Source of the DNA: Alphaproteobacteria bacterium
GTDB taxonomy: Bacteria; Pseudomonadota; Alphaproteobacteria; Rs-D84
DNA: 64,000 nt
NCBI GenBank assembly: GCA_017960855.1
Contig: JAGCYJ010000010.1
Coordinates: 8,098 to 72,097 of the forward strand
Direction: 5' to 3'
Position numbers and translations under genes: made by a program. Below, piece by piece: positions 33,342 through 61,812 of this stretch. Each line of letters opens with the position of its first letter. The first letter of the stretch is position 1. The notes below the pieces were generated by a model that was not told the DNA's origin, ran no database searches, and saw only the letters and a program-made list of their open reading frames with translations.

Positions 33342-34451
33342 GTGACGCAAATATTGTCGGAAACCTACCTGGATTATTCGGATATTCTGATAAGACCTAA
33401 AATGGGAACCAATTTGAATTCTCGTAAAGAAGTCATTTTGGAACGCACTTTTAAATTCAAGCATGGTCAAATCAGAAATGGTTTGGGCGTTTTTAATGCC
33501 AATATGGCGACGGTTGGAAACTTCGTTATTGCCAAGAAATTGCTGGCACGCGGTATGTTTGCGACAATTCATAAACACTATACGATGGATGAAATAGGGC
33601 AGTTTATGCTGGATGCCCGCGGGGAAAATGTGCCACTGGATAATTTGTTCATTACAATCGGACTGAAAAACATAGATGATGAAATAAAAAAACTGAAAGA
33701 TTTGGAATCAAAATACCAATGGACATCGCCACGTAATATCTGCATAGATGCGCCGAATTTTTATATACCAAAGGCACTTGATATTTTGGCGCGTGTGCGG
33801 CATGAATTTCCCGATGCGGTAATTATGGCTGGAAATATCGCCAGTGGTGACGTGTGCCTTAAATTGCTGGATTACGCAGATATTATCAAGTGCGGTATCG
33901 GCAGTGGTTCCGCATGTTTAACACGCAAACAGACGGGGTGTGGAACACCAATGGTTTCACTGATTGTGGAATGTGCCGATATTGCACATTCGGTTGGTGG
34001 TCATATCTGTGCAGATGGCGGAATTGTTGATGTTGGCGATATATGCAAAGCACTGTGTTTGAATTCAGATATGGTTATGATTGGGGGAATGTTTGCTGGC
34101 ACCGATGAAGCCGCCGGTGAAGTGATAGAAAAGCATTACGAAACGAATGAAATTGTCGACGGCAAACATGTGATTCTGACAAAGTATTTCAAGCAATACT
34201 ATGGCATGTCGTCTGAATACGCGAACAATAAATTTGCGGGCGGTATGGGAAATTATAAAACGTCCGAAGGGCGCGAATTACTGATACCTTACACCGGTTC
34301 ACTGGACAAGATTTTGCAGGATATTTCCGGTGGAATCGCGTCTTGCTGCACATATATCGGTGCGACCACGATAAAGCATTTGTCCAAATGCGCGACGATT
34401 ATTCGTGTGAATAATCAACTGAATAAAGTGTTTGAAAAATATTCTGTATAA
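33342..34451 (+). CDS. guaC: GMP reductase (IMPDH/GMPR family)
   Basis: GTG start after AAGGAG. LDYSDILIRPK...S.R.EV.LER.F.FKH and the catalytic loop GIGSGSACLTR resemble GuaC. Confidence 0.8.
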   Translation: MTQILSETYLDYSDILIRPKMGTNLNSRKEVILERTFKFKHGQIRNGLGVFNANMATVGNFVIAKKLLARGMFATIHKHYTMDEIGQFMLDARGENVPLDNLFITIGLKNIDDEIKKLKDLESKYQWTSPRNICIDAPNFYIPKALDILARVRHEFPDAVIMAGNIASGDVCLKLLDYADIIKCGIGSGSACLTRKQTGCGTPMVSLIVECADIAHSVGGHICADGGIVDVGDICKALCLNSDMVMIGGMFAGTDEAAGEVIEKHYETNEIVDGKHVILTKYFKQYYGMSSEYANNKFAGGMGNYKTSEGRELLIPYTGSLDKILQDISGGIASCCTYIGATTIKHLSKCATIIRVNNQLNKVFEKYSV

Positions 34452-34614
34452 CAACACCTATTTGAGTGTTTTTTTATCCTTTTTTATCAAAAGGGCTTGT
34501 GTTGTTCCCCTGTTTTTTTGTATAATTATCATCATAACAAGGGAGGAAAATGCTAAAACGCACATCCGGTTTATATTATGGATGCGGCGGTTTTTGGCGT
34601 ATTACACGGAAATA

Positions 34615-36666
34615 ATGCGGCGATTTTTTAGTGCGATTTTAGTGCTGGTGTTAAGCGCGCGCTTTGGCGTGGCGTGGGCTGTTGACACTTGCACTGGCAC
34701 TGACTTTTATGATGATGAATTAGAGGCGTGTACCCCATGCCCAAATGGATATGATTATAATGATGATGATGGTAAAACCGATGTTTCCCAGTGCCAAATA
34801 CAATGTGCCGCCGGAACTTACATTCGCGATGCGGGGGTTTATGGATATATACGATTGGAATATTTGGAAAGCAATGGGGATGCATACATAAATACTGGAT
34901 TCAAACATAACCCCGCGGCTGGTACAATTCGTGGTGAAATTCGTGTCGGTGCGTCACATGATATGCCATCAAATAAAAATATAAATATTTTGGGGAACCA
35001 GACGGGCTCTGCCGGATATTCAGTTGGGTGGGCAGAAAACCAGTTTAAAGTATGGGTTGAAACAACTCATGCTCGTCTGCGGGGGCCTGATCACCCGCTT
35101 GTCCAAGATGGGGTATATGATATTTCATACGAATTTAAGAATGGTGAACAATATTTGACTGACGGAGAAGAAACAGTTCACATGCCGCATGGTGGGGGAC
35201 TCGCGCCAGACAAGCCAATATACTTGTTTGATAATGGTATTCAAGAAATGGATTATAATTTCGTTGGGCGTATATATTGGGTGCGAATATACGAAGATGA
35301 TGTGTTGGTAGCGAATTTCTTGCCGGTGCGTAAAATTGGTACTGATGATGTTGGAATATATGATACAGTGTCTGGAAAATTCTTTGTTGATAGTGGTAAT
35401 GGGAATGGTTTTATATCTGGTAATGATTTAAGTGCTGTTTGCGTTGATGTGGGGGCCGGTTACTATGTCGGCAGTTCGGTTACCAATTTCGGCAGTGAAG
35501 GCGAACGCGAAGCATGCGGCCCCGGAACATATTCTAACAATCCGCGCGCCACCAGTATCGCCACATGTCAACCATGCCCAGGGGCAACATACAACGATGT
35601 GGAAGGTGCGGCGGCGTGTACCCCATGTCCCGAAGGATATACACAGGATACAACAACGACTGGAAACACACAAAAAAGCGATTGCAAAACCGTTTGTCCG
35701 GCGGGAACTTACATGGCGGCCAATATGATTGATGGGCACACCAAATTGGAATATATTGAAACAACCGGAAAACAGTGGGTAAATACGGGGATTATAGCGG
35801 CAAATCTGGTGAATCCAATTATGGAATTTACGGTGCAATATACCAAGGTGGAAAATGGTAAGCAGACCGGTGCCAAGAAAAATAATCTGGATTTTAAGGT
35901 TGGTATTTCCAATGGTGGAATATTCTTGTGTCAGGCCGGTGGTGCCAACACAGAAACAAGATTTGGTACCGCTGATACCGCGAAACATACGTTTATACTG
36001 GATACAGTGGCGGGTACATGTTCCCTGGACGATGATACCAGAACATTGGCTGTTGGCGATTTAACGAATGGTCCTATTTCAATTGGAACGGTGAATAGTC
36101 AATCTGGTAATGCCGGAAAACAAAGAATATATTCTTATCGTTTGATTAGCAATGGGCAAACACTGTTGGACATGGTTCCCGTACGCAACAGCAGCAATGT
36201 CGCCGGTTTGTATGACAAGATCGGACACAGATTTTACCCCAGCAATGGCACAGAACCATTTGTTGAAGGTTCGCTGTTCACTAGTTCTTCTGGGTGTATA
36301 GATGTTGAACCTGGGTATTGGTCGCCCGAAACATATCTGGGGTATGGGCAAACAAATGAACGTAATCAGTGTCCGATTGGAACAACGACGGTTGGTTATG
36401 GTCATGGCGCAGACGAGGCCACCGATTGCGGACAAAAATTAAACATTGCCGGCACATACATATATTCTAAATCAAGTAAACCAACGACACCGTCACTTAA
36501 CATTATGATGGATAGTGGTACAACTTTCTATATCGGTGCCAGTTCTACAAATCATACATTGTCAAAATTGCATTTATCAGATGGTACAACACAATACACG
36601 GCTTATGACGATAGCTTGCTGTTCGGTGAACGCGATTTTACGACTGGCGCACGTATAACGCAGTAA
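34615..36666 (+). CDS. Secreted Cys-rich protein with two LamG/jelly-roll-like modules and the family terminal module
   Basis: Signal peptide MRRFFSAILVLVLSARFGVAWA begins at 34615; the ORF-track start 34432 adds 61 residues with no signal. Modules lie at about 34843-35421 and 35740-36270. The C-terminus ...TVGYGHGADEATDCG..LNI...LHLSDGTTQYTAYDD is shared with 36762..40814. Confidence 0.8.
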   Translation: MRRFFSAILVLVLSARFGVAWAVDTCTGTDFYDDELEACTPCPNGYDYNDDDGKTDVSQCQIQCAAGTYIRDAGVYGYIRLEYLESNGDAYINTGFKHNPAAGTIRGEIRVGASHDMPSNKNINILGNQTGSAGYSVGWAENQFKVWVETTHARLRGPDHPLVQDGVYDISYEFKNGEQYLTDGEETVHMPHGGGLAPDKPIYLFDNGIQEMDYNFVGRIYWVRIYEDDVLVANFLPVRKIGTDDVGIYDTVSGKFFVDSGNGNGFISGNDLSAVCVDVGAGYYVGSSVTNFGSEGEREACGPGTYSNNPRATSIATCQPCPGATYNDVEGAAACTPCPEGYTQDTTTTGNTQKSDCKTVCPAGTYMAANMIDGHTKLEYIETTGKQWVNTGIIAANLVNPIMEFTVQYTKVENGKQTGAKKNNLDFKVGISNGGIFLCQAGGANTETRFGTADTAKHTFILDTVAGTCSLDDDTRTLAVGDLTNGPISIGTVNSQSGNAGKQRIYSYRLISNGQTLLDMVPVRNSSNVAGLYDKIGHRFYPSNGTEPFVEGSLFTSSSGCIDVEPGYWSPETYLGYGQTNERNQCPIGTTTVGYGHGADEATDCGQKLNIAGTYIYSKSSKPTTPSLNIMMDSGTTFYIGASSTNHTLSKLHLSDGTTQYTAYDDSLLFGERDFTTGARITQ

Positions 36667-36761: not shown

Positions 36762-39700
36762 TTGAAACGCACGTTTCTTGCGGTTTTTACGTGTTTGTTT
36801 TGCGCGCTTAATGCGGGCGTGTCTTTTGCGGCAAATAATTGTACGGGCGCAACGTATTATGATGCGGTGAATGATACCTGTATTAACTGTCCCACCGGAT
36901 ATACCGACAATCCAACCGCTGGCAAAACCAGCGCAAGCGAGTGTCAAAGAAGTTGTGCCGCTGGAACATTTATTGCGACCCCCGCATCCGTGGGTTCAAC
37001 CGCCTATACCCGATTAGAATACATTGAAAACCCAAACGGCAAGTATATCAACACCGGATTTTCGCATAGCAAAACCGCGACCACTATTCGTGGTGTATTA
37101 CGTGTCGGCGTATCAACTAATTTGTCAAACAGTTCAAATGTCAATTTCATCGGGAACCAGGCATCCAGTGGCGGTTATTCTGTTGGTTGGAATGCGTATT
37201 TCAAACTTTGGACCCAGTCATCAAACAGCCGACTAGAGGGGCCCGCATATCCAATGACGGCTGGAACTGTTCATGAAATCGAATACACACTGACAAACAC
37301 CACTCGTTCGTTAGTGTATGATGACGGGCGAAGCAAATCTGACACTTTTAGTGGCGGTAAGATCGTGGACCCCGCCACCACCATACACCTTTTTGATGCT
37401 GGTAATATTCAAGCTGCGCGTTCGTTCAAGGGGCGTATTTACGATTTAAAAGTGTATGAAGACGACGTGTTGGTCCATAATTTTGTCGCTGCGCGTCGCA
37501 ACAGCGATGGCAAAATCGGTATGTATGATACAGTAGCCGATGCGTTTTTGACTGGAAACGGCACATTTACCGCTGGACCCGATGCGGGCGCATGTTCGGA
37601 CGTGGGTATCGGGTACTATTCCAATGCGTCTATGACCGATTATGGTTCTACCAGTACCCGCATTATGTGTACAAATGGTCCGATACACACACACTATACC
37701 GCATCCGCCACATCTAATTCGTGTGCGTATGAGTGTGATGATAATTACGTTATGGAAAATGGTGTATGCGAATTTCAGGATAAATTTACCATAACCACAA
37801 CATCCAATGCGACGGAATTGCGGTTTGACATATCCGCGATTGGCACGTACTATGTTGATTGTGGCACCGATGGTGTGTTGACCCAGACCACGTATAGTGG
37901 TGACAATAACGCGGCCGGAACCGTCATCACCCGTACCAATACCACGAAACTGACCTATTCATGTGCTTGGCCGACTGCGGGTGTGCATACGGTAAAGTTT
38001 GCGGGGACAACAACATCGTATAATACAACCGCCACCATACCCGCGATAAGTTTTGCACCTACGGCCAATAAAATTGCGTCAATGACCGGTTCGTTGTCTG
38101 CGATTTTTCCGCAAAAGAGTGCATCAAACGGGCAATACCCGCGTTTTTATCAGACATTCAAGGGGGCAACCAACCTGACCAGTGTTCCGGCGGGATTGTT
38201 TACTGGAATAACCGGCAATGCAAACGCATCAAACATGTTTCGTGAAACATTTTATGGGTGTACCGCGCTTAATGCGATTCCGGCGGGATTGTTTGCCGGT
38301 GTAACAACGGGTGCGACGGATATGTTCCGATCAACATTTCAGGGTTGTACATCATTAACGTCTATTCCAGATGATTTATTCAGTGGCATGACCACCGCGG
38401 CATCGGGCCTGTTTCAGGCTACATTCAAGAATGCGACGCACTTGGCGGGGTATATACCGCCAACGACATTTGCGGGGCTTATTGCGAACACTTCGCCGAC
38501 AGACACTAATATGTGGACCGAAACGTTTAGTGGTACCGCTGTTGCCACAACCTGTCCGACGGGATTGGATGATTACCCGACCGGCTATGAATCCGAATGG
38601 GCGAATCATGTATCGTGTTATGTTGCATGTCCTGATACTCCACCCACGAACAGTGCTTGGCAAGTCATCAATAATACATGCGTATGGTTGTGCAACGCGG
38701 GGTATTACAGCGCGGACAACACATCGTGCACCGCGGTCGACACCGGTTATTATTCTGGTGACGGCGACAACACGCAAACGGCATGTACCAACAAACCGGC
38801 GAACAGCCATTATACCGGTTCGGCGATAACCGACAATTGTCCGTGGCAATGTGACACGGGCTATGGCAGCGATGCCGGCACCTGTCGCGCGTGTACGGCG
38901 AGTGAATTTTTGACCAACGGTGGTATTTGTGTGAACACAAAGTTTACCGTCACAACCACAAATAGTACAAGCGAATTTAAGTTCTTTATGTGGGAACCAA
39001 CTGGAACATTCTATGTCGATTGGGGCGACGGCAACGTTGATACAATTACGCGTACCAATTCGACCGGAAACACATATTCCCATGACTATGCCGCGACCGG
39101 TTCATATACAATTCGATTTGGTGGTGTTGCGACGGGGTATGATGGAAACTCGGCACATACCGCAATAAGTTTTTATGGGCAAACCGGCGGAACCCAGGAT
39201 AAAATCGCATCCGTTACGGGATCGCTGGCTGCGTTGTTTCCAACCCCCAATGATAGTGCGTTGCCGTTTTTCCGTGAAACATTCCGGGGGGCAACAAACC
39301 TGACATCGGTTCCCAATACACTGTTCGATGGCATAACCCAGACCCATGGTCACATGTTTTATCATACATTCGATGGCGCGGGCTTGACCGCGATTCCATC
39401 TGATTTATTCAGTGATGTCCACTCGTTGGGGGTTGGTATGTTTGAATATACATTTGCTAACTGCGCTTCGTTGACCGCGATTCCAAGTGGATTATTTGAT
39501 GATATGACCGCCAGTGGTGCGGTGGACAATATGTTTGAGGGAACATTTACGGGATGTACATCATTGACCACGATACCAGCCGGTTTGTTTGATGATGTTA
39601 TTGCCAGTTCGTCAAATTGGACACGGCTTTCCAGTACCAGTACCGGCGGTGTATTCCGTGATACGTTTAGTGGCTGCACATCATTAACCTCTGTTCCGGC

Positions 39701-40814
39701 GGAACTGTTTAGCGGAATGACAATCAATGGAATACCATATATGTTCGCCAACACATTTAAAAATTGTTCATCATTGGCGACGATACCGACCGGATTATTT
39801 GATGATATTACGACATCAGGGACGGCGTTCAATATGTTTGAATACACATTTGAGGGTTGTACATCATTGAACGCGATACCGTCGGACTTGTTTGATGATG
39901 TTATTAGTGGTGCAGCCAGCGGAACTGACAAAACCGGCTGGTTCAAGGATACATTTAATGGCTGTACGGGATTGACCGCGATACCGGCCGAATTGTTTAG
40001 TGGTATGACCACCGCTGCAGAGAATTTGTTCTATGGCACATTTAATGGTTGCACGAATTTGGCGGGATATATTCCACCAACCACATTTGCGGGGTTAATT
40101 ACGAATGACAGCACGAAAAACACAAATATGTGGGGTAATGCGTTCGTTGGAACAAATTTGGTGACGGTGTGTCCAGCGGGAACGACACAGTATATCACGG
40201 GCTATGAAGGTTCAACAAACGGAACGACCTGGAATGGCAAGGTTTCATGTGAACCATGTGCCGCCGGAACATATAAAGCAACAGCAGGCAACGGTGCGTG
40301 TACCGCGTGCGAAATTGGAACCTATGCCGCTGCTGGTGCGGTGTCTTGTACGGCATGCACAAATACCAAACCTGCAAACAGTTCGTATAGTTCTAACGCT
40401 ACGACAAATGCGTGTTTGTGGTTATGTGATGGGGGGTATTACAGCACGGATAGCGCGTCCTGTACAGAGGTTGGTGCGGGTTGGTATTCCGCTGATGGCG
40501 ACAATACGCGCAGTGCTTGTGCCGCTGGACTTACCACTGTGGGTTATGGGCATGGTGCGGATGAAGTGGCCGATTGTGGTCATGAATTACACCTTGGAGA
40601 TTTTGTCTTTTATACTAAACAAACAAAATCAACAACACCGGCATTGAACATTACTGATGGCACATCTGTTTCATACCTAGGGGCCAGTACAACCAACCAG
40701 AGTTTATCGAAATTGCATATTTCAGATGGAACAACACAATATACTGCGTATGATGACGGATTATTGTATGGGGAACGGAATGCAACAACGGGGCAACGTA
40801 TTACGCAACAATAA
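36762..40814 (+). CDS. Giant secreted mosaic protein (1350 aa): LamG-like module + 2 x (beta-sandwich + DUF285/BspA-type LRRs) + Cys-rich repeats + terminal module
   Basis: TTG start after GGAAAGGGGG. Signal peptide MKRTFLAVFTCLFCALNAGVSFA. KFTITTT..YYVDCGTDG and KFTVTTT..FYVDWGDGN units. CEPCAAGTYKATAGNGACTACEIGTY. Confidence 0.88.
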   Translation: MKRTFLAVFTCLFCALNAGVSFAANNCTGATYYDAVNDTCINCPTGYTDNPTAGKTSASECQRSCAAGTFIATPASVGSTAYTRLEYIENPNGKYINTGFSHSKTATTIRGVLRVGVSTNLSNSSNVNFIGNQASSGGYSVGWNAYFKLWTQSSNSRLEGPAYPMTAGTVHEIEYTLTNTTRSLVYDDGRSKSDTFSGGKIVDPATTIHLFDAGNIQAARSFKGRIYDLKVYEDDVLVHNFVAARRNSDGKIGMYDTVADAFLTGNGTFTAGPDAGACSDVGIGYYSNASMTDYGSTSTRIMCTNGPIHTHYTASATSNSCAYECDDNYVMENGVCEFQDKFTITTTSNATELRFDISAIGTYYVDCGTDGVLTQTTYSGDNNAAGTVITRTNTTKLTYSCAWPTAGVHTVKFAGTTTSYNTTATIPAISFAPTANKIASMTGSLSAIFPQKSASNGQYPRFYQTFKGATNLTSVPAGLFTGITGNANASNMFRETFYGCTALNAIPAGLFAGVTTGATDMFRSTFQGCTSLTSIPDDLFSGMTTAASGLFQATFKNATHLAGYIPPTTFAGLIANTSPTDTNMWTETFSGTAVATTCPTGLDDYPTGYESEWANHVSCYVACPDTPPTNSAWQVINNTCVWLCNAGYYSADNTSCTAVDTGYYSGDGDNTQTACTNKPANSHYTGSAITDNCPWQCDTGYGSDAGTCRACTASEFLTNGGICVNTKFTVTTTNSTSEFKFFMWEPTGTFYVDWGDGNVDTITRTNSTGNTYSHDYAATGSYTIRFGGVATGYDGNSAHTAISFYGQTGGTQDKIASVTGSLAALFPTPNDSALPFFRETFRGATNLTSVPNTLFDGITQTHGHMFYHTFDGAGLTAIPSDLFSDVHSLGVGMFEYTFANCASLTAIPSGLFDDMTASGAVDNMFEGTFTGCTSLTTIPAGLFDDVIASSSNWTRLSSTSTGGVFRDTFSGCTSLTSVPAELFSGMTINGIPYMFANTFKNCSSLATIPTGLFDDITTSGTAFNMFEYTFEGCTSLNAIPSDLFDDVISGAASGTDKTGWFKDTFNGCTGLTAIPAELFSGMTTAAENLFYGTFNGCTNLAGYIPPTTFAGLITNDSTKNTNMWGNAFVGTNLVTVCPAGTTQYITGYEGSTNGTTWNGKVSCEPCAAGTYKATAGNGACTACEIGTYAAAGAVSCTACTNTKPANSSYSSNATTNACLWLCDGGYYSTDSASCTEVGAGWYSADGDNTRSACAAGLTTVGYGHGADEVADCGHELHLGDFVFYTKQTKSTTPALNITDGTSVSYLGASTTNQSLSKLHISDGTTQYTAYDDGLLYGERNATTGQRITQQ

Positions 40815-45807: not shown

Positions 45808-45830
45808 TAGACGGGGAAAAGAAGAAAAAG

Positions 45831-45854
45831 CACCGCGAAAGCGGTGTTTTTTTT
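45831..45854 (+). terminator. Intrinsic terminator after rpsD
   Basis: caccgc-gaaa-gcggtg followed by T8. Confidence 0.65.
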
Positions 45855-46023
45855 ATGCATTTTTTTTGGGGAAAAAATGCCATTTTTTACTTGCCCAAAT
45901 AATCTCAATTTAGTACGCTTTTCAGCATGAGGATTAAGGGGAAATCTTTTCAGAATTCGGGCGTTTTTTGTCAATCGCCCAAGTGTCAATTAAACAGCAG
46001 GTGAGGGAGTTCTACACGGTTTG

Positions 46024-49000
46024 ATGAAGCGCATTTTGTCAATCTTGTTTATGTGCCTTTTTGTGGTGCTGTCGCCGACACGCGCCAGTGCCGCATGCAC
46101 ATCAAGCCAAATTGACGTTTTGGGTGATGGTACCCAATGCGAAACATCCAAGTTTGAATTGACAACAACATCATTGGCAGCAAATACAACATTCACATTT
46201 ACATTGGGGGCATCCGGTACATTCTATGTTGATTGGGGTGATGGCGGTGCGGTTGAAACAATCGCGCGCGACAGTGTAACCGCCACAGATTATACGCATA
46301 CATATACGACCGCCGGGGTATATACTATACGATTCAGTGGTCTTGCAACGGAATATGATGTATCTAGTAATGGATCTACGACAATATCATTCTATAAAGC
46401 GTCTGGCGGATCCCAGGGAAAGATTGCATCAATTTCTGGTAATTTGGCATCAATATTCCCTTATTTGGGATCGGAAAATAATCAAGCACCAAGGTTTTAT
46501 GGAACTTTTCGTGGTGCAACAAATTTGACGTCAATACCTGCGACTTTGTTCAGTGGTATTACCACTGGAGAGGGTGGGATGTATATGTTTGGTATGACAT
46601 TTTATGGTTGTACTGGTTTGACCAGTATACCGGCGACATTGTTTAGTGGTATTACCACTGGTGCAAATAGCATGTTCTCCAATACATTTTCCGGTTGCAC
46701 GGGGTTAACCAGTTTACCTGAGGGATTGTTCAGCAGTATTACTACTGGGGGATATCAAATGTTCTCCAGTACATTTTCCGGTTGCACGGGATTGACTCGT
46801 ATCCCTGCAAGATTATTCAGCGGTCTTACCACCGTGGGTGGTTATATGTTTCAGTTTCTGTTTAATGGTTGTAAAAACTTGGCTGGTGTCATACCACCGG
46901 ATACTTTTGCTGGATTAACTGCTAATGGTGCTCCAACCAATACTTATATATGGACAAGTGCTTTTACGAATACTAAATTGGCGACATCGTGTCCTGCTGG
47001 CACCCATCAGCATTACACCGGATACGAAAGTAAAAGTACTGGGTTGTTTGAGGACAGGGTTTCATGCGCATGTGATGATGGAACGTGGGGTGATGGCAAC
47101 ACGTGTACAGCATGTGCCAATACACACCCGGCGCATTCATCTTATTATGGTCTTGCAACAACTGCCACATGTCCATGGGCGTGTGATGCTGGGTATTATT
47201 GGGATGGTACCGCATGTTCGGTGTGTTCCAACAGTGCCCCCGCCAACAGTACATTCACACCCGGATCGACAACCGCTACATGTCCGTGGACGTGTAACGC
47301 GGGCTATATTACCAATGGCAATTCGTGCGATGCCCCTGCATTCAGCGTGACAACAACATCATTACCATTTGGCGACAAATTTACATTCAGTTTATCTGCG
47401 GTTGGAACGTTTTATGTTAATTGGGGTGATGGCACCGAAGAAACAATCGTTCGCGATAATACAACCAGCACATGGTATACGCATACATATACAACGCCGG
47501 GGGTACATACAATTAATTTTGGTGGTACCGCAACGGCATATAACACATCTACAAGTGTTGCGACAATATTATTCTATAAATCGTCTGATGGGTCCCAGAA
47601 AAAAATTGCATCAATTTCCGGTAATCTGGCAACGATATTTCCATCTTATGGCACGGATTCTGGACAATCACCACGGTTTAATCGAACATTTCGTGAAGCG
47701 ACTAATTTGACATCAGTTCCTGCGACTTTATTCAGTGGTTTCACCCAAGGGACAAATTATATGTTTTCTGAAACATTTTATGGTTGTACTGGTCTGACCA
47801 GTTTGCCAGCGGGATTATTCAGCAGTTTTACCACAGGTGCAACTTATATGTTTAGTGGTACATTTTATGGTTGTAAGGGTCTGACCAGCTTACCAACGGG
47901 GCTGTTTGGCAATATTACTACTACCACAGGTGCAACTTATATGTTTAATAACACATTTTATGGTTGTACGGGTCTGACCAGTTTGCCGACGGGATTATTC
48001 AGCGGTATGACCAGCGGTACAGGTTATATGTTTTACAACACATTCAAGGGTTGTACTGGTCTGACCAGTTTGCCAGCGGGACTATTCAGCAGTTTTACCA
48101 CAGGTGCAAATTATATGTTTAGTAGTACATTTGAAGGTTGTACGGGTCTGACCAGTTTGCCAGCTGATTTGTTTAGTGGTATGACTACTGGGGCACAGAG
48201 TTTGTTCTCTAGTACGTTTAAAGGTTGTACTGGTCTGACCAGTTTGCCGGATGGATTGTTCAGCAGTATTACCACTGGTGCACAATATATGTTTCTTAGT
48301 ACATTTAATGGATGTACTGGTCTAACTAAATTACCGTCAAGATTATTCAGTGGTCTTACCACCACTGGAAGTTATATGTTTAGCAATACATTTAATGGTT
48401 GTACGAATTTAGGGGGGTATATACCACCGGACACTTTCGCGGGGTTAATTGAGAATGGTTCCCCAAGTGCGAGTATGTGGAATTCCACATTTACAAACAC
48501 ACAGTTGTTAACAGAATGTCCCACTGGTACCGAGCAATATATTACCAGATACGAAGGATCCACCGATGGTACCACTTGGAATGGCAAGGTTTCATGCGGT
48601 TGCGAAGCGGGATATTGGGTTGATGGTGCGACGTGCACGGCATGTTCCAACACAATTCCAGCGCATTCATCTTATACCACGGGCGCGACCAATGCCACAT
48701 GTCCGTGGGTGTGTGATTCGGATTATGTTTCCAACGGCACATCATGCGTCGCACCAGCGTTCAGTGTGACAACAACATCACTGAATGCCAATGATACATT
48801 TACATTCAGTTTAACTGCGGTTGGAACATTTTATGTGAATTGGGGTGACGGTACCCAACAAACGATTGTTCGTACTGATACAACCAGCACATGGTATACG
48901 CATACATATTCATCGGCGGGGACATATACGATTAATTTTGGTGGTATTGCAACGTCATACTATCACGCTGGATATCAGGCGGCAATATCGTTTTATAAAT

Positions 49001-52000
49001 CATCCGGCGGATCACAAGATAAAATCGCGTCTGTTTCTGGTAATTTGGCGACAATATTCCCATATTTGGGTTCGGACGCTAGCCAGAGACCAAAGTTTTA
49101 CCAAACATTTCGTGGGGCAACGAATTTAACGTCTATCTCGGCGGGATTGTTCAGCGGTTTTACCATCGGGGGCGGTCAGATGTTCCATGAAACATTTTAT
49201 GGATGTACTGGTCTGACCAGTATTCCGGCGGGATTATTCAGTTCTATTACCACCGCAGCGGGCACTTCGCAGATGTTTTCAAGTACATTTTACGGATGTA
49301 CGGGTTTGACCACTGTTCCGGCGGATTTGTTCGGTGGCATTACAACCGGTGCGGATCATTTGTTTTATGAAACATTCAGGGGATGTACTGGACTGACCAG
49401 CATACCGGCGGGGTTATTCAATAAAGTAACTTCCTCGGCAGATGCAACTTATATGTTTTATAACACATTTTATGGTTGCACGGGTCTGACCAGTTTGCCG
49501 ACGGGATTATTCAACAGTGTTACCACTGGGGCAGAATATTTGTTCCATGGAACATTTAGGGGGTGCACCGGATTGACCAGTATACCGGCGGGGCTATTCA
49601 GCAGTGTTACGACCGGTGCAAATTATATGTTTATGAACACATTTTATGGATGTACAGGCCTGACCAGTTTTCCTGCGGGCTTGTTCAGCGGACTTACCAC
49701 TGCGGGAAATTATATGTTTGCCTACGTATTTCAAGGTTGCACTAATTTGGCGGGCTTTATACCACCAGATGCTTTTGCGGGGCTGATTGCGAATAATTCG
49801 CCAAACACAACCTATATGTGGAGGGACGCGTTTTACAACACTCAATTGCTGACACAATGTCCAGTTGGTTATACGCAGTATATCACTGGGTACGAAGGAT
49901 CTAGTTATACATCCGCTTGGTACAACAGGGTTTCATGTCAACCATGTCCCGCTGGAACGTATAAGGATGTCGCGGGTAACGAAGCGTGCTCGGCATGTGG
50001 TGTTGGAACATATATGTCGGGTACGGGGGCAACGGAATGCGATGCGTGTACCAATGGACCGGCAAACAGCACTTATACCAGTGGTGGTGGATCAACAAAC
50101 ACTTGCGAATGGTCGTGCGATTCTGGAACGATTCCAACGGGTACATCTTGTGATATACCAAAGTTTGAAGTGACAACGACTGAACTGGATGCGGGTACGA
50201 CATTTACATTTACTTTGTCGGCACAAGGGACATTCTATGTTGACTGGGGCGACGGCAGTGCAGTTCAGACAATCACACGTTCCGATACAACCGCCACCGA
50301 TTACAGTCACACATACGAAACAGCTGGTTCATACACGATAAAGTTTAGCAGCAGTGGCATTACGGCTTATAACGAAGATACGACAACCGCAGCAATCAGT
50401 TTTTATAAATCATCTGGTGGATCACAGGGTAAAATAGCATCTCTTTCTGGCTCGTTGGGGGCGTTGTTCCCAACATTGGCAAGCAGCAGTGGTGGCAGAT
50501 ATGCGCGGTTTATCAATACATTCAGGGGTGCCACCAATCTTACTTCATTGCCGTCAACTTTGTTCAGTGGTGTTGCATCCTCAGGAACATATTTATTTTA
50601 TGGAACATTTTATGGTTGTACGGGACTGACCAGTAATGGAATACCGTCAACGCTGTTCAGCAGTGTCACCACTGGTGGTACCAGAACATTTTATGAGACA
50701 TTCCGTGGTTGTACGGGATTGACAACAATACCGTCGGGATTGTTTAGTACCGTCACAACAAATTCTAATTCTTCCTATTTGTATGTTGGAACATTCCGCG
50801 GTTGTACAGGGTTGACGGAAATACCGTCGGGGCTGTTTAGTCGTGTTACCACAACTTCTACTTATATGTTTCAGAATACATTCTATGGTTGTACGGGGTT
50901 GACCACAATACCATCGGGATTGTTTAGCAACATTAATGCTGGTGGGGCGACTTATCTGTTTAACGGAACATTCTATGGTTGTACGGGTCTAACCAGTATT
51001 CCAGAGGGGTTATTCAGCAGAATTACGGCTGGTAAAGATTACATGTTTTCTGAAACATTTCGTGGGTGTACCAATTTGACGGCATTGCCCAGTGGTTTGT
51101 TCAGTAACATTACGACGACCACCAGTGCTCAGTATTTATTCGATAACACGTTTTTGGGGTGCAGTAAATTGGCCACTGTTCCGGCGAATACATTTAGTGG
51201 AATTACATCAGCTTCTGCAGAAGGTGTCTTTCGTGGCACATTCCAAAGTTGTACCAGTTTGACTAGCATAGATGCTGGATTGTTCAGCGGTATTACCAGT
51301 GCGGTACTTAGGACGTTCAATGCTACTTTCCAAGGGGCTGGTCTGACCAGCATACCAGATGGATTATTCAGTGGTATTACTGCGGGGGCGCATAGTATGT
51401 TTTATTCTACATTCCAAGAATGCACATCGTTGACCGCATTGCCACCAAACTTGTTCGCGAATATTACCAGTGGTGTCGGAAATAGTACATTCCGAAGCAC
51501 GTTTTATGGTTGTTCAAATTTGCGCGGATATGTCCCCCCAACGTTCTTTGCGGGGCTTATTGCGAATAATTCGCCGTACACGGGACCAAATGGCATGGCT
51601 ACTTTGTTCCAGGGTACTAGTTTGGCAACATCCTGTCCGGCGGGCACAACACAATATATTACCGGGTACGAAAGTTATTGGACTTCCAAGGTTTCATGTC
51701 AACCATGTCCCGCGGGAACTTATAAGTCGGGTTCAGGCAATGGTGCGTGCTCGGCATGTGGTGTTGGAACATATATGGCGGACACTGGTGCGACCGCATG
51801 TACCGCGTGTACCAACACAATACCAGAAAATGCGGTCTATTCAACCAATGGTGGTGACGGCGGAACAACCAACACATGCGAATGGTCGTGCGATTCGGGA
51901 ACAATTCCCACCGGCACATCGTGTGAAATGCCAAAGTTCAGTGTCACGACAACGTCAATGGCGGCAAATACGGCGTTTTCGTTTAGTTTGTCGGCAACTG

Positions 52001-53721
52001 GAACATTTTATATTGATTGCGGTGATGGTGGAACGTTAAGACAATTTTCCCCATCCAGCACGATTTCCAACAAGACGATAACCCGTGATAGCGCTTTACC
52101 GTCCAAGTATTCATGTACATGGTCATCGGCGGGTGTACATACGGTTCGTTTCGGTGGTGTGGCAACGGGATACGCTGGTGGGGCCACCAGCAACCCCTAT
52201 GCTCCAATATCGTTTTTTTATGATTCATCAACCGGGCGGAATTTTATTGTATCAGTTGACGGTTCGTTGGGTGCGTTATTTCCACAGTTGGGAACAGAAG
52301 ATGGAAAGTACCCAAAGTTTAATGGTACGTTCCAGAGTGCACCAAATTTAACAACAATTCCAGGTACATTGTTCAGTGGTTTAACCGGTGGCGATTATAT
52401 GTTTAGTCACATGTTTAGTGGTTGTTCATCATTGACCACAATTCCAGATAATCTGTTTAGTGGAATTACGACCAGTGGTAAATCTATGTTTAACGGCACG
52501 TTTTCCCACACTGGTATTACCAGTATCCCATCTGGATTATTTGATGGCGATGACCTTACCACCGGGGCATATGGTATGTTTTGGAGTGTGTTTAGTGGTT
52601 GCTCGTCATTGACTACAATACTGGCGGGGTTGTTTAGCAATTTTACCACCGGTGGATATGGTATGTTTCAAGGAGCGTTTTCTGATTGTACGTCGTTAAC
52701 AACAATTCCAGGGGACTTGTTCAGTGGTATTACCACTGGGGAACCCGCTATGTTTTATGTTACATTTAGTGGTTGTACTGGATTAACGGAAATTCCAGAA
52801 AACTTATTTGCCAATATTACCACAATTTCTGCGATAAATGCGCCTGTGTTTTGGGAAACATTTAGCGATTGTACCAATTTGACTGGTTTTATTCCGCCGA
52901 CTTTGTTCGCGGGATTGATTGCCAATGGTTCGCCGAATCCGTATCCGGGTACTATGCGTGATCCATTTTTTAACACAGGGACGTTAACCGAATGTCCGGC
53001 GGGGTATACGCAGTATATAACTGGTTATGAAGATGATTGGGGTGGCAAGGTTTCGTGCGAACTGTGTCCGGCGGGAACATATAAGGATACCGTGGGAAAT
53101 CAGGCATGTTCAGCGTGCCCAGCTGGGACCTATATTGGAACCACGGGGGCGACCGCGTGTACGGCATGTCCTGCGCTGGATACCGGATATGCTTATGCAG
53201 ATGGAACGGGTTGGACCGGGTGGAATCAGTGTTCGGAACAGATGCGCCCAACAAACTGTTACAGCGGATATTTAACCAAAACCGCAAGCAGCGCATCTGC
53301 ATGGGGAACCGCGGTATCTACGCTCTCTGCCGAGCCGGGATACGAAGTGACAGGCAGTGGCGATAATACGGTATGTTCGGAATGTGGTGTTGGTCGCTAT
53401 GGACCGGGTGGAACAACAGCATGTTCATCCTGCCCAACTGGTTTAACCACGGTTGGATATGGTTCGGGCGCGGACGAAGCGGGCGATTGTGGGCGTATAT
53501 TACATGTGAGTAATGGTGTTCTGTACCTGCGTAGTGTAAAAAAGACAACGCCTTCACTGAATGTCAGAATAGGTAATGATGTTTTCTATGGTAATATGAG
53601 TACAGAACAGATGAATATGAGTGGTAGTTGTGAAGATAACCCCGAACTGAAAGTCAATAATGGAGGAACAATATATTGGATACATGACGACAGCAGTCAT
53701 TTTTGTGGGGTGCCGATGTAG
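46024..53721 (+). CDS. Giant secreted/surface mosaic protein (about 2565 aa): 5 x (beta-sandwich + DUF285/BspA-type LRR array + IPPxTFAGL cap) separated by Cys-rich repeats, plus terminal module
   Basis: 7.7-kb uninterrupted ORF (ATG 46024, with TTG at 46021). Signal peptide MKRILSILFMCLFVVLSPTRASA. Mature N-terminus ACTSSQIDVLGDGTQCETSKF parallels the 1475..4798 protein. Confidence 0.9.
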   Translation: MKRILSILFMCLFVVLSPTRASAACTSSQIDVLGDGTQCETSKFELTTTSLAANTTFTFTLGASGTFYVDWGDGGAVETIARDSVTATDYTHTYTTAGVYTIRFSGLATEYDVSSNGSTTISFYKASGGSQGKIASISGNLASIFPYLGSENNQAPRFYGTFRGATNLTSIPATLFSGITTGEGGMYMFGMTFYGCTGLTSIPATLFSGITTGANSMFSNTFSGCTGLTSLPEGLFSSITTGGYQMFSSTFSGCTGLTRIPARLFSGLTTVGGYMFQFLFNGCKNLAGVIPPDTFAGLTANGAPTNTYIWTSAFTNTKLATSCPAGTHQHYTGYESKSTGLFEDRVSCACDDGTWGDGNTCTACANTHPAHSSYYGLATTATCPWACDAGYYWDGTACSVCSNSAPANSTFTPGSTTATCPWTCNAGYITNGNSCDAPAFSVTTTSLPFGDKFTFSLSAVGTFYVNWGDGTEETIVRDNTTSTWYTHTYTTPGVHTINFGGTATAYNTSTSVATILFYKSSDGSQKKIASISGNLATIFPSYGTDSGQSPRFNRTFREATNLTSVPATLFSGFTQGTNYMFSETFYGCTGLTSLPAGLFSSFTTGATYMFSGTFYGCKGLTSLPTGLFGNITTTTGATYMFNNTFYGCTGLTSLPTGLFSGMTSGTGYMFYNTFKGCTGLTSLPAGLFSSFTTGANYMFSSTFEGCTGLTSLPADLFSGMTTGAQSLFSSTFKGCTGLTSLPDGLFSSITTGAQYMFLSTFNGCTGLTKLPSRLFSGLTTTGSYMFSNTFNGCTNLGGYIPPDTFAGLIENGSPSASMWNSTFTNTQLLTECPTGTEQYITRYEGSTDGTTWNGKVSCGCEAGYWVDGATCTACSNTIPAHSSYTTGATNATCPWVCDSDYVSNGTSCVAPAFSVTTTSLNANDTFTFSLTAVGTFYVNWGDGTQQTIVRTDTTSTWYTHTYSSAGTYTINFGGIATSYYHAGYQAAISFYKSSGGSQDKIASVSGNLATIFPYLGSDASQRPKFYQTFRGATNLTSISAGLFSGFTIGGGQMFHETFYGCTGLTSIPAGLFSSITTAAGTSQMFSSTFYGCTGLTTVPADLFGGITTGADHLFYETFRGCTGLTSIPAGLFNKVTSSADATYMFYNTFYGCTGLTSLPTGLFNSVTTGAEYLFHGTFRGCTGLTSIPAGLFSSVTTGANYMFMNTFYGCTGLTSFPAGLFSGLTTAGNYMFAYVFQGCTNLAGFIPPDAFAGLIANNSPNTTYMWRDAFYNTQLLTQCPVGYTQYITGYEGSSYTSAWYNRVSCQPCPAGTYKDVAGNEACSACGVGTYMSGTGATECDACTNGPANSTYTSGGGSTNTCEWSCDSGTIPTGTSCDIPKFEVTTTELDAGTTFTFTLSAQGTFYVDWGDGSAVQTITRSDTTATDYSHTYETAGSYTIKFSSSGITAYNEDTTTAAISFYKSSGGSQGKIASLSGSLGALFPTLASSSGGRYARFINTFRGATNLTSLPSTLFSGVASSGTYLFYGTFYGCTGLTSNGIPSTLFSSVTTGGTRTFYETFRGCTGLTTIPSGLFSTVTTNSNSSYLYVGTFRGCTGLTEIPSGLFSRVTTTSTYMFQNTFYGCTGLTTIPSGLFSNINAGGATYLFNGTFYGCTGLTSIPEGLFSRITAGKDYMFSETFRGCTNLTALPSGLFSNITTTTSAQYLFDNTFLGCSKLATVPANTFSGITSASAEGVFRGTFQSCTSLTSIDAGLFSGITSAVLRTFNATFQGAGLTSIPDGLFSGITAGAHSMFYSTFQECTSLTALPPNLFANITSGVGNSTFRSTFYGCSNLRGYVPPTFFAGLIANNSPYTGPNGMATLFQGTSLATSCPAGTTQYITGYESYWTSKVSCQPCPAGTYKSGSGNGACSACGVGTYMADTGATACTACTNTIPENAVYSTNGGDGGTTNTCEWSCDSGTIPTGTSCEMPKFSVTTTSMAANTAFSFSLSATGTFYIDCGDGGTLRQFSPSSTISNKTITRDSALPSKYSCTWSSAGVHTVRFGGVATGYAGGATSNPYAPISFFYDSSTGRNFIVSVDGSLGALFPQLGTEDGKYPKFNGTFQSAPNLTTIPGTLFSGLTGGDYMFSHMFSGCSSLTTIPDNLFSGITTSGKSMFNGTFSHTGITSIPSGLFDGDDLTTGAYGMFWSVFSGCSSLTTILAGLFSNFTTGGYGMFQGAFSDCTSLTTIPGDLFSGITTGEPAMFYVTFSGCTGLTEIPENLFANITTISAINAPVFWETFSDCTNLTGFIPPTLFAGLIANGSPNPYPGTMRDPFFNTGTLTECPAGYTQYITGYEDDWGGKVSCELCPAGTYKDTVGNQACSACPAGTYIGTTGATACTACPALDTGYAYADGTGWTGWNQCSEQMRPTNCYSGYLTKTASSASAWGTAVSTLSAEPGYEVTGSGDNTVCSECGVGRYGPGGTTACSSCPTGLTTVGYGSGADEAGDCGRILHVSNGVLYLRSVKKTTPSLNVRIGNDVFYGNMSTEQMNMSGSCEDNPELKVNNGGTIYWIHDDSSHFCGVPM
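46150..53054 (+). repeat. Five coding super-repeats (units start at about 46150, 47338, 48757, 50161 and 51934), each containing 4-11 LRRs of about 28-31 aa
   Basis: Each unit opens with (K/A)F(E/S)(L/V)TTT...GTFY(V/I)(D/N)(W/C)GDG. DNA-level near-identity also occurs inside arrays, e.g. about 80 nt at 47782 versus 48049. Confidence 0.9.
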
Positions 53722-53740
53722 TAGTACGTGTTAGTAAAAA

Positions 53741-53765
53741 ACACCGCCCAAACGGACGGTGTTTT
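53741..53765. terminator. Bidirectional terminator between the giant gene and the convergent smpB
   Basis: acaccgcc-caaac-ggacggtgt imperfect stem, with an A-run before and a T-run after. Confidence 0.55.
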
Positions 53766-54236
53766 TTATTTCCCCTTCATAATACGCGATTTGCTGCGTT
53801 CCCATTCGCGCGTTTTAATTGTTTCGCGTTTATCCACGCGGTGCTTACCATGACCAATGCCCAAAAGAACCTTTAATTTGCCCCTGTTGTTAAAGTAAAG
53901 TTTAAGTGGGAATATGGTGGCACCTTTGTCCTGAAGTTGCCCTATCATGCGATTTATTTGTGATCTGTGCAGTAATAATTGACGCGGGCGACGTTCATCA
54001 AAGTTCACAACTCGCGCGGCGGTCGGTAATTTTTGGATTTCAATGCCCGCCAAGAATAAATTATCGCCACGTTTCTGCACAAAACCATCAACAATCGTCA
54101 CCAGCCCATAACGCACAGATTTGATTTCTGCGCCGGTCATAGACAAACCCGCCTCTATTGTGTCTTCAATAGAGTAATTGAACCGCGCTTTGCGGTTTTC
54201 AGAAACTTGTCCAAATTTTATCAAACTGCGTGTCAT
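53766..54236 (-). CDS. smpB: SsrA-binding protein SmpB
   Basis: NRKARFNY.I....EAG....G.EIKS.R, ....LLLH..(E/Q)I, with a basic C-terminal tail. Confidence 0.93.
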   Translation of the reverse strand: MTRSLIKFGQVSENRKARFNYSIEDTIEAGLSMTGAEIKSVRYGLVTIVDGFVQKRGDNLFLAGIEIQKLPTAARVVNFDERRPRQLLLHRSQINRMIGQLQDKGATIFPLKLYFNNRGKLKVLLGIGHGKHRVDKRETIKTREWERSKSRIMKGK

Positions 54237-59352: not shown

Positions 59353-59378
59353 AGACGACATTTTGTCGTCTTTTTTTT
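59353..59378 (+). terminator. Terminator-like hairpin inside the toxin-gene leader (possible attenuator)
   Basis: agacgaca-tttt-gtcgtct followed by T8, lying between the predicted promoter and the ATG at 59423. Confidence 0.4.
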
Positions 59379-59422
59379 ACCCCGCCACGTGCGGACTTTT
59401 TTATTTAACTAAAGGAGTTATA

Positions 59423-60547: not shown

Positions 60548-60549
60548 GC

Positions 60550-61242: not shown

Positions 61243-61243
61243 G

Positions 61244-61342: not shown

Positions 61343-61359
61343 AAAGATAAAGGCACAAA

Positions 61360-61686: not shown

Positions 61687-61764
61687 AATATTTAAGGTTT
61701 CCTTGTAAAACCCTGTATTTTTCATATATAATACCGTTAAATATTACAACACCGCCACAAAAAT

Positions 61765-61795: not shown

Positions 61796-61812
61796 ATATC
61801 GGGCGCAAAAAA

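Follow-up and report, generated by a model that had tools for sequence, protein, structure and literature searches.

What kind of protein is encoded by a single 7.7 kb gene that repeats one composite unit five times, and what would it do for an alphaproteobacterium of the order Rs-D84? The gene lies in a 64 kb stretch of DNA (the window, meaning the whole stretch analysed), in which four genes of its family, the five-unit gene and three paralogs, take up ~17 kb, about a quarter. We propose, with a probability of roughly 60%, that its product is a Sec-exported, disulfide-bonded, fibre-like surface protein that attaches a dependent bacterium to a partner cell, a host surface or a particle and whose specificity is diversified by recombination.

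The gene is a single unbroken plus-strand ORF that begins at a TTG (46021) or an ATG (46024) and ends at 53721, and the ORF list and translation confirm to the base the uninterrupted frame of 2565 residues (counted from the ATG) given in the first-pass annotation. It constitutes its own transcription unit, with a strong terminator 3′ of rpsD (45823–45854) upstream, an SD-like GGTGAGGGAG (46000–46009) ahead of the start and a convergent smpB downstream; a σ70 promoter consensus was sought upstream of the gene and was not found. An identical protein is already present in NCBI as a 'leucine-rich repeat protein' from an Alphaproteobacteria MAG. The N-terminal region reads as a Sec-type signal peptide that is probably cleaved after ASA, although the succeeding 'AC' also makes a lipoprotein reading possible, if non-canonical. 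The features of the gene and its paralogs are summarized in Table 1.

Table 1. Coordinates of the five-unit gene, its segments and the paralogs in the window
Feature	Position	Strand	Basis
Whole gene, 2565 aa and stop codon	46024..53721	+	ORF list and translation
Predicted Sec-type signal peptide MKRILSILFMCLFVVLSPTRASA	46024..46092	+	Read from sequence; N-termini of paralogs similar, ending AxA
Unit 1: PKD-like sandwich (aa 43–146), ~5 LRRs, cap (aa 278–348)	46150..47067	+	Motifs, AF2 model
Linker 1: 90 aa, 10 Cys; small β-hairpins in AF2 model	47068..47337	+	
Unit 2: ~8 LRRs, contains the 110 nt near-identical pair	47338..48597	+	Motifs
Linker 2: 53 aa, 6 Cys	48598..48756	+	
Unit 3: ~8 LRRs, almost the same in both alleles (dS 0.015)	48757..49938	+	
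Linker 3: 74 aa, 8 Cys, ephrin-receptor-like	49939..50160	+	CPAGTYK...C.ACGVGTY motif common with linker 4
Unit 4: ~12 LRRs; best PKD match aa 1385–1441	50161..51699	+	
Linker 4: 78 aa, 8 Cys, ephrin-receptor-like	51700..51933	+	PF07699, 4.8e-11
Unit 5: ~7 LRRs, Cys/Cys subtype of PKD-like module	51934..53058	+	
C-terminal Cys-rich region: 127 aa, 11 Cys, ephrin-receptor-like repeats	53059..53439	+	Best PF07699 stretch aa 2341–2382
C-terminal domain (CTD): ~90 aa, all-β	53440..53718	+	Common to two window paralogs
Paralog, 1350 aa: jelly-roll-like domain at the N-terminus, two such units, CTD	36762..40814	+	
Paralog, up to 744 aa: Cys-rich modules and CTD, no LRR units	34432..36666	+	
Paralog, 1107 aa: two units with 33 aa LRRs, divergent CTD-like end	1475..4798	-	Two N-modules

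Each unit consists of a PKD-like β-sandwich, a predicted LRR solenoid of the BspA/PARCEL type, a cap with two Cys and an ephrin-receptor-like spacer that is probably rich in disulfides. There are exactly five occurrences of the motif [KA]F.[LV]TTT (aa 43, 439, 912, 1380 and 1971; nucleotides 46150, 47338, 48757, 50161 and 51934), as does GTFY.[DN][WC]GDG, and every unit ends with the cap motif [IV]PP..FAGL followed by 'VSC'. All five starts and the common internal order are thus as first annotated; the repetition of the unit stands, but its length, given there as about 400–600 aa, is somewhat shorter at 306, 420, 394, 513 and 375 aa for units 1–5, respectively. The N-modules share pairwise identities of 45–70%. 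The units are separated by the expected Cys-rich linkers, and outside the LRR ladder the cysteines come in even numbers: two in the segment ahead of unit 1, two per cap and 10, 6, 8 and 8 in linkers 1–4. Within the PKD-like module, two positions covary perfectly across 174 modules (98 W/H, 76 C/C and none mixed), a pattern that fits an optional disulfide.

Profile searches with the whole protein support the reading of LRRs nested in super-repeats. Pfam PF13306 (LRR_5) is matched above its gathering score (68.4 bits, cut-off 27.7, E = 7e-19) and the NCBIfam model TIGR02167 at 179.2 bits (cut-off 30, E = 5.7e-54), while a PDB profile search returns LRR proteins that include the Bacteroides LRR_5 structure 4fs7. 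PKD (PF00801) reaches 34.0 bits for the whole protein (cut-off 23.5, E = 3e-8), with one module on its own falling under the cut-off at 20.4 bits. Ephrin_rec_like (PF07699) is matched in four stretches at 59 bits (cut-off 23.1, E = 4e-16), and at 4.8e-11 on a segment covering the unit 4 cap and linker 4. A match to CPR_pilus_PamR (69 bits, cut-off 300) was rejected and is put down to a common Ig/PKD-like segment; the bacterium is an alphaproteobacterium and not a member of the CPR.

The AF2 model of unit 1 and linker 1 (aa 43–438; pLDDT 91.3, pTM 0.82) contains a confident N-terminal β-sandwich (model residues 1 to ~100), a repeat region with pLDDT values of 94–98 and almost no DSSP-assigned secondary structure, which we read as a solenoid, and, after the repeats, small Cys-rich β-hairpin modules. 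A β-sandwich accompanied by a repeat solenoid is what had been anticipated for one unit. Foldseek found no match to the unit model in the PDB at E ≤ 0.001, so the LRR assignment draws its support from sequence profiles and from matches among predicted structures. In BFVD, a library of viral predicted structures, the top match of the unit model is a 'PKD domain-containing protein', and predicted BspA-family structures are also matched.

Predicted structures of phage proteins match the unit best, and a Mu-F-like/Tlde1 gene is located at 59363–60547. On these grounds the LRR gene could be part of a prophage remnant and encode a receptor-binding or decoration protein. However, matches drawn from a viral library partly reflect the library searched. 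The gene is flanked by rpsD, LemA, lysS, smpB and tatD with no phage structural genes nearby; moreover, the protein carries a predicted Sec signal peptide and its family is chromosomal in many genomes. We consider a phage origin to be very improbable.

The LRRs recur every 87 nt (29 aa), although some measure 90 or 93 nt. They number ~32–34 in total, or 5–12 per unit when the first and cap repeats are counted, and the 29 aa spacing is found in 16 of the 33 LRR anchor spacings, the remainder being 28, 30 or 31 aa or longer gaps. The positions that vary most sit between the conserved hydrophobic residues of the repeat. The first-pass annotation singled out adjacent LRRs near 47782 and 48049 as nearly identical at the DNA level. 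The near-identity is real (93.6% over 110 nt between 47782–47891 and 48049–48158, whereas the 561 LRR pairs as a whole have a median of 56%), but the two copies are not adjacent: they lie 267 nt, or three repeats, apart. This patch, the longest near-identical stretch in the gene, fits the local duplication or gene conversion suggested for it.

Short-read assemblies frequently get repetitive genes wrong and the sequence here comes from a MAG, so a collapsed or chimeric assembly, or a decaying pseudogene, had to be weighed. Against this, the longest near-identical stretch is just 110 nt, the 7.7 kb contain no stops or frameshifts and purifying selection is evident throughout. Through the neighbouring SmpB, the gene was found at 99.6–99.8% protein identity in four independent assemblies from different samples, three of which are full-length and equal in length while the fourth is partial at a contig end and agrees as far as it goes. 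A second allele is intact in two further assemblies. An artefact or pseudogene is effectively refuted.

The two alleles also show how the gene varies. The assemblies of one allele differ by 4–8 residues with no change in repeat number, whereas the second allele has two extra LRRs (+62 aa) in unit 5 and several small indels; the length variation for which the first-pass annotation saw scope is thus seen between the alleles. By segment, dS between the alleles ranges from 0.015 (unit 3) to ~2–2.5 (~2 in unit 5), and dN/dS from 0.06 to 0.5, below 1 in every segment. Unit 5 has diverged to 53–66% amino-acid identity depending on the segment, and the C-terminal Cys-rich region that follows it also diverges. 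The second allele is a recombination mosaic, unit 5 is a hypervariable allelic cassette and the alleles differ mainly through the recombinational exchange of entire segments rather than through slippage. Positive selection was rejected as the cause of the unit 5 divergence in view of a saturated dS and a dN/dS of 0.16–0.26. The locus itself is also variable: in some close strains (95–97% nucleotide identity in smpB–tatD) homology stops right after smpB, and two of these synteny-broken strains have a different gene beside smpB. In those strains smpB does not have the LRR gene as its neighbour, and the place of the gene at this locus may not be fixed.

Mosaic alleles with segment dS values from 0.015 to over 2, the conversion-like patch, several paralogs in 64 kb and a locus broken by presence/absence or rearrangement are also features that an antigenic or phase-variation repertoire might have, in which cassette exchange would mainly help the cell to escape host immunity, phages or predators and ligand binding would be secondary; such a role has been proposed for PARCEL lipoproteins of mycoplasmas (PMC2996958). 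This explanation appears to be unlikely. The dN/dS ratio stays below 1 in all segments, the four assemblies of one allele are nearly invariant and a cursory look at the region around the start noticed neither simple-sequence tracts nor invertible elements. In addition, none of 394 collected proteins qualified as the donor of the variant unit 5, the best match being ~50–58% identical.

The protein ends in a six-stranded all-β domain (AF2 model pLDDT 84.7) with the motif CG..LH.G...YL.S.K.TTPSLNV..G..FYGNM....LK....Y..DDS. The CTD matched nothing in Pfam, NCBIfam, PHROG or PDB sequences, and the best Foldseek match of its model in the PDB had E = 3, with nothing significant; small lectin, CBM and GOLD matches (E > 0.1) were rejected as evidence. 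We conclude that the CTD is a previously undescribed domain. An exhaustive HMM search of a library of 1.84 billion proteins recovered 834 cluster representatives, and the genome scan, for which the profile was built from eight closely related CTD sequences, shows that the domain is nearly restricted to Enterousia and related alphaproteobacterial gut MAGs. In 159 of 193 cases it forms the very C-terminus of the protein, and it is carried by varied cargo (thioredoxin plus Flg_new, LamG and LRR_5). Another domain comes after the CTD in 18% of the family, which is hard to square with a sorting signal that is cleaved and strictly terminal. Across 80 loci, no neighbour of the CTD genes qualified as a conserved partner; secA alone recurs (13 of 80), which is probably synteny. 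Pfam and NCBIfam searches of the whole protein and of the CTD revealed no autotransporter barrel, T9SS CTD, RTX repeats or sortase/exosortase-type signal, and the last 100 aa contain no visible TM helix.

The five-unit gene is one member of a large family with hundreds of members. Of the three paralogs in the window, that at 34432–36666 probably has its real start near 34618 and that at 1475–4798 matches DUF285 (57.5 bits, cut-off 25, 1.4e-15). LysS, which is 83% identical to that of Ca. Enterousia merdequi and 92% identical to a putative Ca. Enterousia sp. protein, places the bacterium in or near Ca. Enterousia (order Rs-D84), as far as one marker sequence can. Genomes of Rs-D84 are smaller than 1 Mb and belong to predicted obligate symbionts or parasites with many uncharacterized membrane proteins; Rs-D84/Enterousia bacteria occur widely in the guts of animals and humans, lack most biosynthesis and are predicted to be partner-dependent (PMC12306168).

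The composition of the protein and the size of its family could instead be those of a structural envelope coat, an S-layer-like or glycocalyx scaffold that forms a protective outer layer of low charge, possibly glycosylated, in which the CTD would act as the envelope-binding module. The mature protein (2542 aa) is 41% Ser, Thr and Gly, has very few charges (137 D+E and 84 K+R) and contains 38 N-x-S/T sequons, one CTD is common to many paralogs and the family occupies a big part of the coding capacity of a tiny genome. Less easily accommodated by a coat are the relatives, which vary in number of units (2–11), in domain content and in length (1400–4500 aa among the matches listed). LRR solenoids are typical binding modules, and the allelic swap of one distal unit suits a changing specificity better than it does a lattice. 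We therefore regard a coat as doubtful.

For the preferred reading, that of an attachment protein, the following arrangement is suggested. The protein would leave the cytoplasm via Sec and form a disulfide-bonded fibre at the surface, with the LRR solenoids (29 aa turns, Cys in a ladder position) acting as binding surfaces, one Cys pair closing each cap and rigid ephrin-receptor/TNFR-like spacers keeping the binding modules apart. Judged from the sizes of its modules, the extended protein would be very roughly 60–70 nm long. The conserved CTD recurs on many further secreted proteins of the lineage; its most likely task is to connect the protein with the cell envelope or with an export or anchoring step peculiar to the lineage. 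The fibre would then attach a metabolically dependent bacterium to a partner cell, a host surface or a particle, and its specificity would be diversified across the population by whole-segment replacement, above all in unit 5, with occasional gain or loss of LRRs adding to the changes. More speculatively, and with only a small chance of being correct, the CTD may mark a surface-display or anchoring route specific to Rs-D84/Enterousia, on which recombining giant disulfide-rich LRR adhesins are mounted for obligate epibiotic or parasitic attachment to a gut partner, possibly a protist, with the eukaryote-like Cys-rich spacers perhaps acquired from, or mimicking, partner proteins. If the LRR proteins are an attachment apparatus, they would provide an obvious handle on the partner or host ligand and could be used to enrich or label the uncultured cells; strain typing would also be possible because unit 5 is an allelic cassette.

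Several known systems resemble parts of this protein. Phage proteins annotated as 'PKD domain-containing' or '26-residue repeat' proteins (e.g. M4QPG4 of Synechococcus phage S-SKS1) contain one PKD-plus-LRR unit of similar size (338 columns, E = 1.9e-10), but the TM-scores are low (0.3–0.45) and these are single units in a viral context, without Cys-rich spacers or a CTD. The CTD of the Bacteroidota T9SS is comparable in its logic only: both are all-β domains of ~80–90 aa found C-terminally on unrelated secreted proteins within one lineage, whereas there is no similarity in sequence or fold, 18% of the present family has a domain after the CTD and no cognate machinery was identified. Cys-rich surface proteins with ephrin-receptor-like/TNFR-like PF07699 repeats are mostly eukaryotic. 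The spacers described here match that family in four stretches and have a regular Cys spacing, but they are short spacers between bacterial LRR modules and the likeness is one of the Cys framework.

The likeness to PARCEL (described in 2010) comprises the TIGR02167 match, the DUF285 match of one paralog and tandem amphipathic repeats of variable number in secreted or membrane proteins of small-genome microbes (PMC2996958). Repeat blocks split by spacers are mentioned in that work, in which the canonical unit is 25 residues and non-canonical lengths are allowed at lower scores (PMC2996958); the units observed here are 29–33 aa and differ from the canonical one. The PARCEL paper predicts amphipathic helices (PMC2996958), whereas the AF2 model here has almost no regular secondary structure in the repeats. 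The association of PARCEL with mobile elements in some taxa has no counterpart in the window, the neighbours of the gene being rpsD, LemA, lysS, smpB and tatD. Dyad symmetry in the gene amounts to at most a 9 nt GGTCTGACC in ~11 repeats (GGTYTGACC, with 11 occurrences in the gene against a chance expectation of 0.9 for the whole window), and longer recurring inverted repeats or PARCEL-style long palindromes were sought in the gene and none were found.

BspA-type LRR proteins (BspA of Tannerella forsythia, LrrA of Treponema denticola, Bacteroides 4fs7 and the families of Trichomonas vaginalis and 'Ca. Mycoplasma girerdii') likewise have tandem LRR_5 repeats and a signal peptide. Their TpLRR repeats are ~23 aa long, as against a period of 29 aa in the present protein and 33 aa in one of its paralogs. 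The LRR blocks of the present protein are set in a unit of PKD-like module, LRRs, cap and Cys-rich spacer that occurs five times, and the protein is terminated by an undescribed β domain in place of a C-terminal TM helix, a Bacteroidetes T9SS CTD or Big_2 domains. As in the BspA-type families, there is multigene expansion in a small-genome host-associated microbe (PMC4206474). BspA-type proteins serve as adhesins, and their families have grown large in other microbes that have reduced genomes and live with hosts or protists (PMC4206474, PMC2996958); by analogy an adhesin role is the most likely one for the present protein. Many host-associated microbes have giant LRR adhesins, and the protein class in itself is not surprising.

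The giant gene is a single unbroken ORF whose product starts with MKRILSILFMCLFVVLSPTRASA, interpreted as a Sec signal peptide; in an independent assembly, one gene caller picked the same start. The super-repeat layout of the first-pass annotation is borne out, with every motif at its stated position: all five units open with [KA]F.[LV]TTT, contain GTFY.[DN][WC]GDG and the cap [IV]PP..FAGL, and end in VSC. They are 306, 420, 394, 513 and 375 aa long, with 45–70% pairwise identity between their N-modules (the PKD-like sandwiches). The DNA repeat finder returned more than 25 copies of an LRR with a period of 87 nt (29 aa), sometimes 90 or 93 nt, and the 29-aa consensus TFxGCTGLTSxPAGLFSGxTTGAxYMFxx is most variable at the sites between conserved hydrophobic residues. 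Median identity over all 561 pairs of LRR units is 56%. The pair of near-identical DNA segments noticed earlier is real (93.6% over 110 nt), but its members are not adjacent as had been stated, lying three repeats (267 nt) apart. Each unit carries one cysteine per LRR at the ladder position and two in the cap, and linkers 1–4 contain 10, 6, 8 and 8, counts that fit an extracytoplasmic disulfide-bonded protein. The mature protein has an unusual composition, with 41% Ser+Thr+Gly and only 5.4% D+E and 3.3% K+R. It contains 38 N-x-S/T sequons and might conceivably be heavily glycosylated.

Coordinates of the giant gene, its paralogs and other features of the window.
Feature	Position (nt)	Strand	Description
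Giant gene	46021 (TTG) or 46024 (ATG) to 53721	+	2565 aa from ATG
Mature giant protein	46093–53718		
Unit starts	46150, 47338, 48757, 50161, 51934		aa 43, 439, 912, 1380, 1971
Near-identical DNA pair	47782–47891, 48049–48158		
PKD-like module, W...H type	46216–46330		
PKD-like module, C...C type	52000–52140		
CTD copies	53440–53718, 40521–40811, 36376–36663		three genes
Paralog	36762–40814	+	two units, N-terminal jelly-roll-like domain
Paralog	34432–36666	+	744 aa, Cys-rich modules only
Paralog	1475–4798	-	two units with 33-aa LRRs
Terminator-like hairpin	45823–45854	readable on both	strong, intrinsic type, 3' of rpsD; 14-pair stem and T run
Break in synteny	53722–53766		junction at smpB end in L005, L006, L013, L014
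K/E/W/Y-rich ORF	29012–31288	+	758 aa; no Pfam or PHROG match; borders low-GC stretch 30001–32000 (GC 0.36)
Phage Mu F-like segment joined to Tlde1/YkuD L,D-transpeptidase-like domain	59363–60547	+	adjoins low-GC stretch 60001–62000 (GC 0.34)
ORF	42489–43886	+	465 aa; no Pfam/PHROG family match
ORF	32003–32980	+	325 aa; no Pfam/PHROG family match
ORF	16333–17124	+	263 aa; no Pfam/PHROG family match

Other contigs with the locus were retrieved through the identical neighbouring SmpB. The possibility that so repetitive a gene is an assembly artefact is effectively refuted, since the same allele occurs in four independent metagenome assemblies (L007, L008, L010 and L012; protein identity 99.6–99.8%, zero indels, the L012 copy being partial and ending at the contig edge), a second allele is intact in two more (L009 and L011), and near-identical internal stretches reach at most 110 nt, less than the usual short-read length. 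Across 20 kb, L007 and the window share 99.96% identity.

The giant protein matches Pfam LRR_5, the BspA-type LRR (68 bits; cut-off 27.7), Ephrin_rec_like (59 bits across four stretches) and PKD (34 bits), as well as NCBIfam TIGR02167, the PARCEL/26-residue surface repeat (179 bits). A hit to CPR_pilus_PamR (NCBIfam; 69 bits against a cut-off of 300) was attributed to a shared Ig-like segment. An alignment of unit 1 and linker 1 with 20 related units served as input for AlphaFold2 and for a profile search. The resulting model (pLDDT 91.3, pTM 0.82) begins with a β-sandwich of ∼100 residues, and its Cys-rich part is a run of short β-hairpins. The earlier proposal of an LRR solenoid capped by a β-sandwich is thus upheld for the sandwich; the middle ∼180 residues, predicted with very high confidence, have hardly any regular secondary structure and are interpreted as the repeat solenoid. 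No PDB entry reached E ≤ 0.001 in a Foldseek search with this model, but the sequence profile matched solved LRR proteins (consensus LRRTM, 2e-12; lamprey VLRs and repebodies; the Bacteroides LRR_5 protein 4fs7, 1e-6). Among predicted viral structures (BFVD) the best match to the unit model has E 1.9e-10 over 338 columns; a phage origin of the gene is nevertheless considered very improbable. The alternative W/C and H/C positions pointed out in the PKD-like motif are coupled: among 174 modules of the family, 98 are W...H, 76 are C...C (including that of unit 5) and none is mixed, with a median loop of 24 residues in the C/C type against 14 in the W/H type, which suggests that an optional disulfide substitutes for a Trp–His contact.

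NCBI already lists an identical protein under the title 'MAG: leucine-rich repeat protein [Alphaproteobacteria bacterium]'. The search that found it also detected 193 relatives (E ≤ 1e-10); among the 120 listed, lengths are 1400–4500 aa and the named sources are 'Alphaproteobacteria bacterium' gut MAGs. Most relatives have 2–11 N-modules by HMMs made from the window units, so the super-repeat design is a family trait and not a peculiarity of the giant gene. Together with its three paralogs, the gene takes up ∼17 of the 64 kb (about 27%). The two plus-strand paralogs have an extra N-terminal domain (LEYIE..G.QYINTG...GRIY..R.Y) resembling LamG/jelly-roll, and a similar domain follows the C-terminal domain (CTD) in some relatives.

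The CTD, the last ∼90 aa of the giant protein, is common to two window paralogs and many relatives, with the motif CG..LH.G...YL.S.K.TTPSLNV..G..FYGNM....LK....Y..DDS. Searches of Pfam, NCBIfam, PHROGs and PDB sequences gave no match, and its confident six-stranded AlphaFold2 model (pLDDT 84.7) resembles no fold in the PDB (best E = 3). When 1.84 billion representatives were searched exhaustively with a profile, the domain turned up in 834 proteins (607 at E ≤ 1e-10) of up to 6644 aa. The cargo upstream of it varies: thioredoxin with Flg_new, LamG, LRR_5, ephrin-receptor-like or nothing recognizable. With one genome per GTDB species, it is almost confined to MAGs labelled 'Alphaproteobacteria bacterium', 'Candidatus Enterousia' or 'Rickettsiales bacterium', obtained from the guts of ruminants, horses, chickens and humans and including one circular genome of 958 618 bp; the three exceptions are on short contigs (two <3 kb, one 26 kb). 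In the sequences collected, the CTD ends within 25 residues of the C-terminus in 159 of 193 matches and is followed by one further domain (∼128 aa and Cys-rich, or ∼180–200 aa and jelly-roll-like) in 34 (18%), which argues against a strictly terminal signal. By analogy with other C-terminal sorting domains, the CTD is read as a lineage-specific module that most likely links its carrier proteins either with the envelope or with a step in export. No conserved partner gene lies beside CTD genes except secA (13 of 80 loci), which is directly downstream in these loci (L015 and 12 others, from different species), probably as conserved synteny of one orthologous locus.

The second allele is a mosaic with 87.7% overall identity to the window version, between flanking genes with ∼94% DNA identity. 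Synonymous divergence is 0.015 in unit 3, 0.09 in unit 4, 0.12 in unit 2, 0.48 in unit 1 and 0.36 in the CTD; in unit 5 it reaches 2.5 in the PKD part and 1.8 in the LRR part, and it is ∼0.9–1.0 in the unit-5 cap and the C-terminal Cys-rich region. In addition, unit 5 of the second allele is longer by 62 residues (two LRRs) and the PKD loop is shorter by 11. With dN/dS of 0.06–0.5 in all segments, such divergence indicates that segments were replaced through recombination between diverged lineages or paralogs while purifying selection acted; neither rapid positive selection nor slippage is indicated. That the family is an antigenic-variation repertoire appears unlikely. The two unit-5 versions are ∼51% identical to each other and equally far from units of other proteins, and no donor was found among the proteins collected.

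Housekeeping genes (LemA, rpsD, smpB, tatD and lysS) surround the giant gene, and the terminator after rpsD and the convergent smpB make it its own transcription unit. In four short contigs (95–97% identity across smpB–tatD) window homology stops exactly at the end of smpB, with a CTP-transferase-like gene in place of the giant gene in two; some strains therefore lack the gene or have a rearranged locus. Elsewhere in the window, the 758-aa ORF may be foreign or lineage-specific, and the Mu F-like/Tlde1 product could represent either an effector that targets peptidoglycan or what is left of a prophage.

LysS from the window shares 83% identity with its Ca. Enterousia merdequi counterpart. Enterousia corresponds to GTDB genus Rs-D84, order Rs-D84 (PMC8035907); most biosynthetic pathways and standard transporters are missing from its genomes of 0.75–1.0 Mb, and its members are predicted to be obligate symbionts or parasites that have many uncharacterized membrane proteins (PMC12306168). 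The giant protein would be exported by Sec, folded with disulfides and displayed as a long modular fibre, its five LRR solenoids acting as binding surfaces, each behind an Ig-like domain and held apart by rigid Cys-rich spacers. Pfam and NCBIfam reveal no known module for outer-membrane crossing or retention in the protein or its CTD. By analogy with BspA-type proteins, and with the BspA-like and PARCEL families expanded in other small-genome, host-associated microbes (PMC4206474; PMC2996958), its most likely function is to make a metabolically dependent cell adhere to a partner, a host surface or a particle; an envelope coat is an improbable alternative. The family could plausibly serve for attachment in a gut lineage that is widespread, uncultured and partner-dependent.

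A giant LRR adhesin as such will not surprise specialists, and automated annotation already names the protein an LRR protein. By profile criteria its LRR part belongs to both LRR_5 and TIGR02167/PARCEL. It differs from PARCEL in its repeat length (29–33 aa against the canonical 25), in carrying no more than a trace of the dyad symmetry seen in PARCEL DNA and in having no link to mobile elements. The novelty, which is not categorical, is the PKD–LRR–cap–Cys spacer unit repeated 2–11 times together with an undescribed CTD that merits description.
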